Source: a virus
Reading direction: 5' to 3' (one strand)
DNA: 64,000 nt
Virus record (IMG/VR): IMGVR_UViG_3300036715_003254
Span: 64,001-128,000 of that record
A program made the translations under genes and the position numbers. This document shows, in pieces, positions 33,757 to 57,720 of this stretch. The stretch's first letter is position 1; each line of letters begins with the position of its first letter. The notes under the pieces were generated by a model. That model was not told where the DNA came from. It saw only the letters and a program-made list of their open reading frames with translations, and searched no databases.

Positions 33757-33927
33757 AATTCCTTTTTAAACGATTTGTGAACCGCTCCTTCGTAAAAGAA
33801 GAGCTTCCTAACTAACAACTTCCAACGAAGTTGAGCACGAAAGGCTTTGTGTTTATAGTCCACAAGGCTAGTTCCTAGCCCAAACGACTATGATTATATT
33901 ATATAATCAGTCGATAGCAAAAACAGA
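33757..33927 (-). ncRNA. Stand-alone TnpB omega-RNA cassette (mini IS605 derivative)
   Basis: GTCGTTTGGGCTAGGAACTAGCCTTGTGGAC...AAAGCCTTTCGTG...GTTAGGAAG...GCGGTTCAC matches the 3' ends of both tnpB loci; putative guide AAATCGTTTAAAAAGGAATT. Confidence 0.8.
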
Positions 33928-33969
33928 TAGATAAAAACGAACGCCAAATTCTTTAGACTGATTTATTTA

Positions 33970-34671
33970 TCAGTTTTGTTTTGGTTTCTCAGCTACCAGA
34001 ACTTCAAAAGTTTCTAGAGTATTTGAAACAAATTTAAAAATCACTTTACCTGACGCATTTCTATGTATAGAAACTCTGTATGTTCCTAGAGGAATTTTTT
34101 TAAAGTTATCATTGCTCAAAGAAAGCATAACATCTTCTTTCGACTCGCCGTCACATTTAATAGAAAAAGTATTTCCGAGAGTTTCTGAATCAAGAGAAAT
34201 TGTTATTTCATCATCAGACGATGAGATTGTGATATTTTCTAGATCTTTAAGAACGCTTGACGCCTTTCTTAGTTTACCCATATCTTCGTCGCTAAGAGTA
34301 AACGAAATAATCGGTTCAATAGAATCAACCTTGTCAAATATACTAAAGTTTAGTCTATATTTGTCTAGTAGGTCTAGGTCTGATGTGTAATATGTGATTT
34401 GTGTTGACCTATCAGAAAGAATAAGTTTTGAATCTTCTTGTTTAATTTCCGGATCTTCAAGAAGTTTCACTACTGATAGAAATTCGGAAAGTTTTCCGAG
34501 CAAACCGAATTCTTCAAACTCTTCAGAGTCGTATCTAGAAAGATCGATTTTGGCCATAATGGTTGAATCTATATCTTTAATCCCGAGTATAGGATAAGAA
34601 ACAACTAGGCTTGAAGAAATATCTTGTAATTTTGACAGGATTGTCAACGAGTTTTTGTTAAGCATTTTCAT
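33970..34671 (-). CDS. gp45: Sliding clamp
   Basis: 233 aa; EFG...LSEFL..V.L..DPEI, F.LS..D..KL.KAS.VL, NFKKIP.G.Y.V. Confidence 0.8.
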   Translation of the reverse strand: MKMLNKNSLTILSKLQDISSSLVVSYPILGIKDIDSTIMAKIDLSRYDSEEFEEFGLLGKLSEFLSVVKLLEDPEIKQEDSKLILSDRSTQITYYTSDLDLLDKYRLNFSIFDKVDSIEPIISFTLSDEDMGKLRKASSVLKDLENITISSSDDEITISLDSETLGNTFSIKCDGESKEDVMLSLSNDNFKKIPLGTYRVSIHRNASGKVIFKFVSNTLETFEVLVAEKPKQN

Positions 34672-34771
34672 CCTTCAAACGAAATTAAAGTTTTTCGGTC
34701 TTACGACAAAATGTATTTTGAAAGCCGAAAACTTTTAACTTCGGTTATTATAGCCGAGAAAAGTTTAACAA

Positions 34772-35275
34772 TTAATACCAAACGAAGTATTTTCCTTTTG
34801 TAAGCTCTATATAACCGATGAGTTCTTCCTTCATATCAAGAAAGTCTTCTTTGTCTAAAACATAGATAGTCTTTTTGAAAATCTTTTTCGCTTCTTCGTC
34901 TAGTGTAATGAACTCTTTTTTACCGACTTGAATTTTTGTTTTAAAGATTTTCTCTTTCAAAATTTTCATATCATCATCAGTCAATTCAGGAAAATCATTT
35001 TTGATTTTTGTGAAGTCAACAACGCTTGAGTAGTCTGTTTTTACTGAAGAGATTTTCTCTCTGAATTTTCTCGGCCATTTGACACAGTGTGTATCTATAA
35101 AAAGAGTTTTCTTCATTCCTTTACCCTTAGAGACATCATAGATTCTTTTGAAATCTACATCTTCTTCTAGCTTATATTTTTTAGCTAGAACAGTAAAGGT
35201 AGCTAAATGAATTCCAAGCTTTTCGCTTAATTCTGATGTAGAAACAAAGTTTTTTCCTAAAGTGTATTGTGTCAT
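34772..35275 (-). CDS. Hypothetical protein, possible N-terminal HTH
   Basis: VSTSELSEKLGI; 167 aa. Confidence 0.55.
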   Translation of the reverse strand: MTQYTLGKNFVSTSELSEKLGIHLATFTVLAKKYKLEEDVDFKRIYDVSKGKGMKKTLFIDTHCVKWPRKFREKISSVKTDYSSVVDFTKIKNDFPELTDDDMKILKEKIFKTKIQVGKKEFITLDEEAKKIFKKTIYVLDKEDFLDMKEELIGYIELTKGKYFVWY

Positions 35276-35517
35276 ATTCTTCCTTCCTGTTTAAGTTGTA
35301 GGATTTTTATGATGTCATTCTTAGTTACATTCAAATCTTTTTCGAAAGACATTTCAAGTTTCCACCCGTATTTTGTTTGAGAGTATACATAGACAAAACG
35401 AGAATGGCGAACTATTTTTAATGTGGTATTATTCGCTGTAAAATAATCATCTTGTTTTTCATCATAACAGCCAGAAAATAGGAACAATACAATAATAAGA
35501 AAGAGTATCCTTTTCAT
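35272..35517 (-). CDS. Lipoprotein
   Basis: Lipobox FSGC after a hydrophobic stretch. Confidence 0.65.
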   Translation of the reverse strand: MKRILFLIIVLFLFSGCYDEKQDDYFTANNTTLKIVRHSRFVYVYSQTKYGWKLEMSFEKDLNVTKNDIIKILQLKQEGRI

Positions 35518-35969
35518 TCGAATAGTCCTTCTACTCTTCTTCTAGACTCATCTTCAAGTTGTTTTTGAAGTTTTTCACATTTTTCTTTGTAGAATTTTAA
35601 TTGATTCTTAGTAGTTTGTAGCTCAAAATCATTAGCAAGAAGTTCGCCTTTATGTTGTTTTTTGATTCTCTCTAAGTCGTAGAGAGCTTTTTCTACGCTT
35701 TCTATAACAGTTTGTCTTCCTTGATTTTTAAGTGAAAGAGATTTATTTTGAGAAGACAAAACTCTAACTTGTTCTTCAAGGTCTTTTATTCTTTTTTGAG
35801 TTTCAAAGTCCACACCAAATAGAGCGTCAATATCAACACCTTTTAGGCTTTCTGAATATTCGAGAATTTTATCTATAAAAAGGTCCGCATTTCTTTTTAT
35901 ATCAGCTTTTGAAGCTGAAAGTCCTTTAAGAGTTTTTAGGACTTTGTATGCTGTTTTTACATCGTTCAT
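35514..35969 (-). CDS. Coiled-coil hypothetical protein
   Basis: 151 aa, AGGAG RBS, own early promoter. Confidence 0.6.
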   Translation of the reverse strand: MNDVKTAYKVLKTLKGLSASKADIKRNADLFIDKILEYSESLKGVDIDALFGVDFETQKRIKDLEEQVRVLSSQNKSLSLKNQGRQTVIESVEKALYDLERIKKQHKGELLANDFELQTTKNQLKFYKEKCEKLQKQLEDESRRRVEGLFE

Positions 35970-36033
35970 AACGAACTCCTAAAAAAGATAAAGAATTATA
36001 CCTTGTCTTTTCTTTAAATAAGCTTAAAGAAAA

Positions 36034-36150
36034 TTATTTTTGATGCGTTTTGAAGTAAGCGGACGCCTCTTCGGAAGTTGAGAATTTTTTTCCTGACAAA
36101 TTCAAAACATACGGAGAAGTATCACCAAAATAAGAAAGAGTCAATATAGA
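36034..36150 (-). pseudogene. 3' fragment of a ~100-aa repeat-family gene
   Basis: SILTLSYFGDTSPYVLNLSGKKFSTSEEASAYFKTHQK* aligns to the family C-terminus and starts right at the IS right end. Confidence 0.7.
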
Positions 36151-36270
36151 GTGAACTGCCTACTCCTTAAAGGAGTCGGCTTCCTAACTAACAGCTTCCA
36201 GCGAAGCTGAAACACGAAAGGCTTTGCGTTTATATAAGTCCGCAAGGTTGGTTCCCAACCCAAACGACTT
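36131..36270 (-). ncRNA. omega-RNA/right end of tnpB-1
   Basis: Overlaps the tnpB 3' end; ends GGCAGTTCAC at 36151; putative guide TCTATATTGACTCTTTCTTA. Confidence 0.8.
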
Positions 36271-56326: not shown

Positions 56327-56384
56327 ATTTTTCCTTTATCTTTTTTATTTGATAAATTATATCTAGATTTTCCTTAAAGAAGAC

Positions 56385-56687
56385 TTAAAGAAAAAATTCA
56401 TTTAACGATTTTTTGTAGTATTCGATAGCATCATCGAGAGTCGAAAAAAATTTATCTTTCCTCCAAAAAATATGAGGTTTTTCGCTTAATCTGGTAAGAA
56501 ACTTGACGAAAAAAAATCTTTCGCCATCGCATTCTTCTGATGTTATAAACGCTATTTCCTCATCAGTATCTTCAAGAATTTTTTCGACTCGGATTTTTAA
56601 AGAATTCATATTCTCATCACTAAAGAAAGAACCTTTATAATCGGCGGCAAGTTTAGATTCGCCAAGATATTTTTCGGCGTTTGTCAT
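56385..56687 (-). CDS. ~100-aa repeat-family protein (start revised)
   Basis: AAGGA RBS before MTNAEKYLG. Confidence 0.8.
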   Translation of the reverse strand: MTNAEKYLGESKLAADYKGSFFSDENMNSLKIRVEKILEDTDEEIAFITSEECDGERFFFVKFLTRLSEKPHIFWRKDKFFSTLDDAIEYYKKSLNEFFL

Positions 56688-56709
56688 ATAAATCCTTTTA
56701 AAAGAAAAT

Positions 56710-56997
56710 TCATTTAGCCGCCTCTTCGTAAAAGGCGACGGCATCAACTAAAGTTGGAAAATATTCGTTTGTCCATTCAACGACTCGAGGGATATCATCA
56801 AATCTTTTGAGAACTCTAATAACAAAAACTCTCTTTTTGTGTTTTTCTCTTGTTATGAAAATTATTTCTTCGTCGCTAGATTTAAGAATTTTTATGAATT
56901 TTCTTTTGAAGATTTTCATTTTATTTATGTCAAAGAAAGAGCCTCTATAATCGGCTGTAAGCCGAGAAACTCCGAGACAATTTTCGATATTTGTCAT
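56710..56997 (-). CDS. ~100-aa repeat-family protein
   Basis: Family motifs. Confidence 0.8.
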   Translation of the reverse strand: MTNIENCLGVSRLTADYRGSFFDINKMKIFKRKFIKILKSSDEEIIFITREKHKKRVFVIRVLKRFDDIPRVVEWTNEYFPTLVDAVAFYEEAAK

Positions 56998-57297
56998 TTA
57001 AACGCCTAAATTATTTTGTTTTTCAAAATATTCGATCGCTTCTTCAGCAGTCGAAAAAACAGGATCTAACAAAATGAAAATACGAGGTTTTTTACGAAAT
57101 TTTTTAAGAGTTCTGATGATGTATATCCTTTTATCAAGAATTTTTTCTGATGTTAAAAACATAATTTTATTTGAAGTGTATTTAAGTATTTTCTCTATTT
57201 GTAAATCACGAGATTCAATAAATTCTTCATCAAAGAAATTGTCTTCGTATTCGGTGGTAAGTTTAGAAGTCCCGAGATATTTTTCGATGTTTTTCAT
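56998..57297 (-). CDS. ~100-aa repeat-family protein
   Basis: Family motifs; own promoter. Confidence 0.8.
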   Translation of the reverse strand: MKNIEKYLGTSKLTTEYEDNFFDEEFIESRDLQIEKILKYTSNKIMFLTSEKILDKRIYIIRTLKKFRKKPRIFILLDPVFSTAEEAIEYFEKQNNLGV

Positions 57298-57363
57298 TTT
57301 GAAACCCTTTTTAATTTCGAAAATTATAACTAAACTTACCTTAAATTACACTTAATGAGAATT

Positions 57364-57657
57364 TTATTTTGCGAGGCTTTCGTAATATTTTATAGCTTTA
57401 AACGGAGTTTCAAATTCCATATTTACAAAGTCATAAACGCCAGGAACATCATCATCTACTCTTTTTAGAATGTTTATTCTATAAATTCTTTTATTGACTC
57501 CTTTTTTAGATACCAGAAAAATCGCTTCTTCGTCGTCATTTTTTAGAACTTTTCCGATTCTGATGTCCAATTTTCTTAAAAATTTACTGTCAAAATAGTT
57601 ACCTCTAAAATCAGAAGTGAGTTTAGTATTACCTAGATATTTTTCGATGTTTTTCAT
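57364..57657 (-). CDS. ~100-aa repeat-family protein
   Basis: Family motifs; own promoter. Confidence 0.8.
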   Translation of the reverse strand: MKNIEKYLGNTKLTSDFRGNYFDSKFLRKLDIRIGKVLKNDDEEAIFLVSKKGVNKRIYRINILKRVDDDVPGVYDFVNMEFETPFKAIKYYESLAK

Positions 57658-57684
57658 TTTGGAATCCTTCTTTTTTAATTTAGA

Positions 57685-57720
57685 AAATTATAACTAAACT
57701 TTTCTTAAAGAAAGCTTAAA
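57685..57720 (-). promoter_or_regulatory. Representative repeated early sigma70-type promoter
   Basis: TTAAGCTTTCTTTAAGAAAAGTTTAGTTATAAT. Similar copies near 35995, 38038, 44624, 51100, 51476, 53456, 53822, 56356 and 57324. Confidence 0.75.

Follow-up and report, generated by a model that had tools for sequence, protein, structure and literature searches.

TnpB-only elements and gene-less omegaRNA units in a T4-like phage: candidates for RNA-guided homing

What keeps RNA-guided nucleases of the TnpB type, together with several guide RNAs and without a transposase, in the genome of a lytic phage? The question is raised by a 64,000-base stretch of viral DNA, hereafter the window, which comprises bases 64001 to 128000 of the IMG/VR virus record IMGVR_UViG_3300036715_003254 (138,481 bases, 94% complete by CheckV). 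It holds two TnpB-only elements of the IS200/IS605 family of insertion sequences (IS), and two stand-alone copies of the omegaRNA scaffold that serves TnpB. The original prediction had seen in this arrangement a domesticated multi-guide nuclease that cuts the alleles of one expanded phage gene family. We consider it probable, though well short of certain, that these are instead selfish IS200/IS605 (OMEGA) elements which are kept by RNA-guided homing between co-infecting phages, with the stand-alone units using TnpB in trans. Homing against co-infecting relatives had already been named as one possible use of the system, and it is also what we favour from the sequence, on the strength of intact and selected nucleases, conserved gene-less scaffolds, promoters, the genomic setting and natural polymorphism.

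The first element, E1, occupies positions 36151 to 37767 on the minus strand, with its tnpB gene at 36184-37593, its omegaRNA scaffold at 36151-36270 and the target-adjacent motif (TAM) TTTAT at 37768-37772. The second, E2 (51539 to 53159, likewise on the minus strand), has its tnpB at 51571-52980, its scaffold at 51539-51657 and TTAT at 53160-53163. As had been read from the open reading frames (ORFs), each gene encodes a protein of 469 amino acids; the two proteins are 86% identical without gaps. Both contain the HTH_OrfB_IS605, OrfB_IS605 and Cas12f1-like_TNB domains above the Pfam cut-off, as well as the motifs GIDMN, VEDL and NPDHQAS and a CxxC...CxxC finger, all of which could be aligned to a solved TnpB-like chain. 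We take the three motifs to be the catalytic D-E-D of the RuvC domain. Within the window no TnpA had been noticed, and the same holds for the entire record: neither a Y1 TnpA (PF01797) nor a serine recombinase (PF00239) was found in the 138,481 bases, and the control genomes gave matches. The search of the rest of the genome that had been proposed for tnpA and further scaffolds thus came out in two ways, since it returned no tnpA but did recover a third TnpB element (E3) and a third stand-alone scaffold (S3). E3 lies outside the window; the last 61 codons of its gene remain at the first bases of the record, and it is 87-88% identical to E1 and E2 over its last 218 bases.

The two complete tnpB genes are under purifying selection, with a synonymous divergence (dS) of 0.47, a non-synonymous divergence (dN) of 0.08 and a dN/dS ratio of 0.17. 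At four-fold degenerate sites 101 of 132 positions are identical, and the left-end regions from TAM to tnpB (174-179 bases) have 105 identical positions against a shuffle mean of 107.5. Each of the six scaffold copies of the record has a hairpin at its right end; the left end of E2 carries a hairpin of right-end type with GTTCAC, and that of E1 only a weak hairpin candidate. The copies differ from each other by 11-21% (11-14% among the three TnpB elements), and are therefore old rather than the outcome of a recent burst. That the left ends have diverged while the nuclease and scaffold were kept points to selection on the nuclease and its RNA, and not on the substrate of a transposase. Hence, the pattern of conservation speaks against simple decay as well as against a recent burst of transposition, although the selection that it records need not have taken place in phage lineages.

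A BLAST search of the whole record with the scaffold of the stand-alone unit S1 returned six copies, three of which form the 3' ends of tnpB genes (E1 to E3) and three of which are gene-less (S1 to S3). Four fall within the window, with minus-strand right ends at 36151, 51539 and 33777 and one plus-strand copy at 37846-37962. We built a covariance model from 18 TnpB-adjoining scaffolds of bacterial genomes and metagenome contigs, none of them from this phage, and with it S1 scored 109.8 bits, E3 106.7, E1 100.5, S3 95.5, E2 94.5 and S2 94.3, the next-best match in 66 kb being one of 14.2 bits. All six match the model from end to end (1-114 of 114), so that the four copies first picked out in the window, including the two that stand alone, are indeed full-length. 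No Rfam family was found for this scaffold RNA. Across the six copies 94.9% of the pair cells are paired and 8 of 26 pairs are changed on both sides, values that none of 500 shuffles reached (slid-partner controls were 23-52% paired), in an alignment that was itself fitted to the covariance model, which favours high pairing. Almost every copy has its own sequence for the last hairpin, whose pairing is always kept, with five of six pairs changed on both sides. S1, S2 and S3 have no upstream tnpB, and the compatible effectors in the record are the three TnpB genes. Their scaffold cores are 91-94% alike, as against 60-69% for the 42-55 bases upstream, and they share one 3-base and one 1-base deletion relative to E1 to E3; they therefore constitute one lineage and not three independent wrecks.

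Terminal hairpins (33784-33805, 37934-37954 and 51546-51567 in the window, and L003 190-211) show likeness across the two types of unit, that of S1 resembling those of E3 and of the E2 left end (53105-53124), and that of S2 resembling the E2 right end. Since S1 and S2 nevertheless have the S-type core, the copies would seem to have exchanged sequence by gene conversion.

The stand-alone units are more than bare scaffolds. S1 (33777-33930, minus strand) consists of a promoter-like TTGCTA-16-TATAAT and a scaffold (33777-33890) that ends in GGTTCAC, with TTTAT just upstream of the unit. It lies between the gene for the sliding clamp or DNA polymerase processivity factor (33970-34671, minus strand; phrog_223, E 5.4e-21), directly upstream, and that for a gp32-like single-strand DNA-binding protein (32826-33752, minus strand; PF08804, E 1.8e-38), directly downstream, and its right end is 24 bases ahead of the gp32 start codon. 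S2 (37793-37956, plus strand) stands head to head with E1 and has a promoter-like TCGACT-17-TATAAT with TG before a complete scaffold. The 25-base spacer that separates it from E1 (37768-37792) holds the E1 TAM, and its E1-side end, TGTGTTTAT on the minus strand, corresponds to codons xVY of the gene family described below. S3 is found outside the window, at record bases 820 to ~982 on the minus strand. Of the three best sigma-70-like matches in the 4.7-kb region that holds both units, S1 and S2 have one each, ending 4-8 bases before the scaffold. Such matches are common in AT-rich DNA (the window has 26-38% G+C), with 24 found against 16.8 expected, and we regard these two as modest evidence for promoters.

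The 42-55 bases that make up the left parts of the stand-alone units showed no likeness to E1, E2, the left ends of bacterial IS605 or the fetched loci, and contained no hairpin of left-end (LE) type; those of S1 and S2 share a 19-base match. As a guess, these parts might derive from the promoter of an IS605 tnpA. The left part of S3 overlaps the last codons and stop of a 75-residue ORF (L003 947-1174, minus strand), whose C-terminus the insertion of S3 may have supplied. Outside the phage, a contig of an uncultured Campylobacter sp. has a stand-alone scaffold (L116 1717-1830, minus strand) behind ATATGATATAAT, with the same extended -10 as S2; a gene-less omegaRNA equipped with a promoter may thus exist in a bacterial (or prophage) genome too.

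The guide of an IS605-type element is the DNA directly behind its right end, and the flanks accordingly identify both the predicted guides and the sites of insertion. Here the flank assignments of the original prediction stand: E1 is followed by codons SILTL..., E2 by YEMMFK and the stop, and S2 by the antisense of SKLTSEY, all from genes of the DUF7447 family, and the fourth guide in the window lies outside that family. This last is the predicted S1 guide (33757-33776, minus strand), which coincides with the 5' leader of the gp32 gene (start codon ATG at 33752), ribosome-binding region included; a similar leader is retained in a relative whose gp32 is 66% identical. The predicted E2 guide (51518-51538, minus strand) consists of the displaced last codons of the family gene f53148 (53148-53429, minus strand), which E2 cut five codons before its natural stop and which now ends inside the E2 left end. 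E1 and S2 share a single broken family gene. Its 3' fragment (36034-36150, minus strand; SILTL...THQK and stop) supplies the predicted E1 guide with its first 20 bases, while the antisense of its 5' fragment, MKNIEKYLGVSKLTSEYK (37957-38010, minus strand), is the predicted S2 guide. With E2 taken out, the gene rejoins as AIAYY^EMMFK and stop (^ marks the joint), comparable to a paralogue that ends AIAYYKKVFK. With E1 taken out, the codons rejoin as xVY^SILTL, in keeping with the family pattern R-(I/V/L)-(Y/F)^x-I-R. Judged by these joints, E1 behind TTTAT and E2 behind TTAT are precise, classical TAM-adjacent insertions that left no target duplication, as made by ordinary TnpA transposition. 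S2 is joined less regularly. It lacks the usual TTCAC end, by truncation or mutation, and instead has TTTAT (37957-37961), which is placed like a TAM ahead of its own guide match and is at the same time the antisense of family codons E-Y-K. S2 proper may end at 37956, because a population allele agrees with it up to 37957. S2 and the spacer together take the place of ~40 codons of the broken gene.

The claim that the system is aimed at the DUF7447 family does not follow from these guides. Those of E1 and E2 are the flanks of insertions and match no paralogue: when set against the corresponding positions of the eight intact paralogues, 7-12 of 16 bases disagree for the E1 guide and 5-9 of 16 for that of E2, and neither has another match in the genome with fewer than two mismatches, nor any behind TTAT. 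The S2 guide, which falls in conserved N-terminal codons, has one mismatch in 16 to two paralogues that carry TTCAT or TCTAA in place of TTTAT, two to one paralogue with TTCAC, and two, five and six to three paralogues with TTTAT. This is what escape from cutting might look like, but a set of eight genes is no proof. In all, three of six guides and two of five loci are in family genes; the S1 guide lies before gp32, and those of E3 and S3 are in a stretch without a long ORF near the start of the record. The detected family members are all within the window and amount to ~2% of the genome. Two insertions in so small a target exceed chance, and dispensable early genes with a conserved TTTAT explain this just as well as an aimed function would. 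A role for these proteins as TldR, a nuclease-dead repressor, was considered and rejected: the RuvC motifs are intact, and five guides match only their own flank behind GTTCAC, where there is no TAM, and that of S2 its own flank behind TTTAT.

Are the elements fixed in this phage, as a domesticated system would be? This DNA is contained in four public DNA runs from four studies of sediment and microbial-mat metagenomes, and we mapped the contigs of the four onto positions 33600-53599 of the window. An allele without S1 is present in three of the four, with 33776 joined to 33934 through 24 other letters (plus strand), at depths of 21.7, 6.6 and 27 against ~55, 12-15 and 34-73 in the flanks. In one of the four runs E1, spacer and S2 are skipped together, 36150 being joined to 37957 by a contig whose shorter side has only 30 bases. 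Read depth in the tnpB bins is ~2 to 4 times that of their surroundings, which implies further copies in these samples. Natural populations are thus polymorphic for the elements, which fits mobile or homing elements and not a fixed domesticated system; no sign of the domestication originally proposed was found.

Other joints were seen in single runs and have short sides: 44655 to an E2-like right end at 51539; 36028 to 39223, skipping 36029-39222 with the epimerase gene; and 36662 to 52049, leading from E1 to E2 inside tnpB. These may be further insertion sites, deletions or chimeric copies. The joints 51434>53423 and 53599>51288, and probably 38020>53441, were discarded as mapping between paralogues, the letters between being the window's own 53600-53637.

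The setting in which the elements occur is that of a T4-like phage, judged by gene content, which in the window includes the gp32-type single-strand-binding protein (PF08804), sliding clamp, helicase, exonuclease and a group I intron. The gp32 proteins of Campylobacter T4-like phages share 43% identity with that of this phage; the nearest one found in IMG/VR shares 66%. The closest TnpBs, at ~60% identity, are proteins of Aliarcobacter and other Campylobacterota, and among phage proteins the best matches come from Helicobacter phages, at 41%. From the likeness of gp32, the relatives of TnpB and the types of sample, the host is probably a member of the Campylobacterota.

Bacterial and metagenomic sequences supply the wider context. 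Related metagenome loci are full IS605 elements: a Y1 tnpA stands just before tnpB, the right end is ...TAGTTAGGAAG-hairpin-GTTCAC, and the left end comes directly after TTTAT. IMG/VR gave no TnpB closer than 52% over 44 residues, GenBank phages no DNA match to 36100-38100, and a metagenome scan for TnpB relatives only those of ~60% identity. A 22-mer specific to the E and S scaffolds had no match in IMG/VR and a second specific pattern none in genome contigs; a looser scaffold pattern matched 93 stretches in genomes (80 analysed) and five in IMG/VR. The 80 Campylobacterota loci contain 83 scaffold matches, 31 without an adjoining TnpB (at least 400 bases upstream), 20 with one and 32 so close to the end of a contig that an adjoining TnpB could not be judged. 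Like S1 to S3, many of those without a gene, for example in Helicobacter, start at the first bases of the scaffold. Around the gp32 gene of relatives, a scaffold was found at none of 18 loci.

With these data in hand, the following course of events may be proposed for selfish elements that persist by homing. E1 and E2 would have arrived by TnpA-type insertion behind TTAT or TTTAT, with a transposase supplied from outside the phage. TnpB made during infection would load omegaRNAs from all six loci, those of the stand-alone units in trans. Upon co-infection with a relative that lacks an insertion and has the TAM and flank, TnpB would cut the empty site, and the recombination machinery of the phage would copy the element into the cut, a transposase-independent ("non-restorative") homing like that of the free-standing homing nucleases of T4. 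The three guides in one family would then be a by-product of dispensable, clustered genes with a conserved TTTAT. More tentatively, and as a possibility that we would not rate as high as homing in general, the stand-alone units may themselves be guide-only homing elements, each a promoter and an omegaRNA that code for no protein, borrow TnpB from nearby elements for the cutting of empty alleles and in this way spread in the phage population. S1 would then occupy the leader of gp32, a constrained sequence ahead of an essential gene, with the S1-less allele as a TAM-escape variant. The S2-E1 block would be a two-guide cassette, its outward guides both matching TTTAT-flanked sites of the intact family gene, so that with cuts at the two sites the cassette would take the place of the ~120 bases between them.

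Several points weigh against homing. The purifying selection on tnpB may predate entry into the phage. The S1-less allele is not a clean empty site: it retains the guide match, but preceded by AAAAT instead of TTTAT, and as seen it would not be cut, so that it may stand for resistance to cutting or for nothing more than another lineage. Close phage relatives with decaying copies are probably marked by two JGI contigs of 133 kb and 25 kb (P0082, P0110), in which TnpBs 81-82% identical to E1 are frameshifted after ~residue 310. A TAM-flanked empty site in a close relative was looked for in IMG/VR, with the nearest records excluded, and not found. The suggested sequence search for such sites accordingly brought no support, as the four guide 20-mers had no matching stretch each in IMG/VR, a result of little weight because records near this phage's own were excluded. 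The S2 RNA, if active, would target its own genome, with a TAM standing before its guide match, and the perfect last hairpin of S2 with its T-rich run looks like a terminator. For S3, finally, no promoter passed the scan.

The rival that survives best, which we consider rather unlikely though it has to be taken seriously, is ordinary accumulation of IS and miniature IS through a host-encoded TnpA into dispensable or intergenic DNA, with a TnpB that matters neither to the phage nor to how the elements pass from phage to phage. It would account directly for the canonical TAM-adjacent insertion of E1 and E2, full IS605 elements that encode TnpA and share the right end do occur in relatives of the likely host, Campylobacterota genomes commonly contain stand-alone scaffolds (the 31 of 83 matches without an adjoining TnpB), and TnpB-only IS are on record in T4-like Campylobacter phages (PMC2853527). 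However, copies as old as these (11-21%) would hardly be expected to include two complete and intact tnpB genes with a dN/dS of 0.17, nor to have conserved four-fold sites and scaffolds beside left ends no more alike than shuffles, and the stand-alone units lack the LE-like hairpin. Improbable by comparison is the view that the stand-alone scaffolds are dead relics (solo right ends) without RNA function, S1 and S3 serving at most as incidental promoters or spacers. The aberrant end and terminator-like hairpin of S2 and the want of a passing promoter in S3 are in its favour; yet each of the three is complete and matches the scaffold model as well as the copies linked to TnpB, their stems stay paired through double changes, above all in the last hairpin, their core is far better kept than the part upstream, and all start at the first bases of the scaffold as the gene-less Helicobacter copies do. 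Least probable of all is the domesticated nuclease that would cut DUF7447-family alleles for competition or for recombination and diversification of the family: half of the guides do fall in this small part of the genome, that of S2 comes within one or two mismatches in 16 of four paralogues, the two nearest of which lack TTTAT, and contigs joining family promoter regions exist (possibly mapping artefacts), but the guides of E1 and E2 fit none of the paralogues (5 to 12 mismatches in 16), the family accounts for only two of five loci, the remaining guides being ahead of gp32 and in a stretch almost devoid of ORFs, TAM escape cannot be demonstrated with a set of eight paralogues, and the elements are polymorphic, not fixed.

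The family itself forms a cluster on the minus strand (50777-51067, 51144-51446, 53506-53799, 56385-56687, 56710-56997, 56998-57297 and 57364-57657), each gene behind a shared repeat of early-promoter type (D1, D8). This 67-base repeat of promoter plus leader (...TATAAT...AAGGA..ATG, minus strand) has ten copies, most of them ahead of small early DUF7447-family genes: 38004-38070, 45643-45709, 49338-49404, 51063-51129, 51442-51508, 53423-53489, 53790-53856, 56323-56389, 57290-57356 and 57654-57720. It is likely an early promoter type of the phage and a substrate for recombination between paralogues. Elsewhere in the window, a second expanded family comprises four tandem paralogous genes of ~115-146 amino acids at 45742-47563 (minus strand; repeat family D9), and a very long repetitive coding region at ~3900-13550 (minus strand) has units ~165-175 bases apart (D2-D7, D11, D15, D17). 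The group I intron is a match to the full Rfam model RF00028 (85.4 bits) at 22884-23160 on the plus strand.

As it stands, the genome mainly documents known types of element in a new phage lineage. Were TnpB homing to work between co-infecting lytic phages, it would also be a compact natural test bed: its three nucleases have diverged from one another, it has six guides, alleles with and without an insertion are found in nature, and one unit that carries only a guide stands at the leader of a gene essential for replication. RNA-guided nucleases would then fill in phages the role of the protein-guided homing endonucleases of T4, and a guide RNA alone could be a selfish gene. Our literature searches found no demonstration of TnpB homing between lytic phages. 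TnpB has been described as a homing nuclease that restores excised elements (Meers 2023; PMC10055086), and a 2026 review treats non-restorative homing of transposons between co-infected phages or plasmids as a theoretical type, citing evidence from plasmids (PMC13565253).

How, then, do these elements compare with known systems? They most resemble the IS1341-type and full IS605 elements of Campylobacterota (Helicobacter, Aliarcobacter, Sulfurovum), with which they share the TnpB domains, a scaffold that overlaps the 3' end of tnpB, a right end in ...TCAC and a TTAT/TTTAT target. Unlike these, they occur in a lytic T4-like phage with no TnpA in its record, and their copies are not near-identical but 11-14% diverged, with left ends that cannot be aligned to each other. 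The stand-alone units recall the palindrome-associated transposable elements (PATE), PATE-like elements often carrying omegaRNAs that would need action in trans (PMC10055086), and the stand-alone omegaRNAs that have been found in genomes which also hold effector-bearing loci and are reported to function in trans (PMC10691335, citing Altae-Tran 2021). Like both, they are complete scaffolds without an effector, with compatible TnpBs in the genome and a guide of their own derived from the flank, and they are evidently mobile or polymorphic, one S-type core standing at three loci. From these known forms they differ in that a left-end hairpin cannot be recognised, S1 and S2 carrying a sigma-70-like promoter instead, in that their carrier is a phage, where none is more than 2.3 kb away from a TnpB element, and in the irregular junction of S2 with its target. 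Among phages the nearest parallel is ISCaje of the Campylobacter phages CP220 and CPt10, reported in 2010 as TnpB-only IS200/IS605 elements (PMC2853527); these too are T4-like phages of Campylobacterota with several such elements. The TnpB here belongs to a different subfamily, and the stand-alone guide units are a feature of this phage that the available text of that report does not describe. S1, between the clamp and gp32 genes, is placed much as the free-standing homing genes of T4 phages are in the account of the review already cited (PMC13565253). As with such Seg and Mob genes, the insertions studied here lie between or in conserved genes, show presence/absence polymorphism and would be expected to spread by double-strand break and recombination during co-infection; unlike them, they would choose their target by RNA guide and TAM and not by protein, and the stand-alone units would encode no nuclease. 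The types of element (TnpB-only IS and stand-alone omegaRNA) are already known, and what is new is the phage lineage that carries them.

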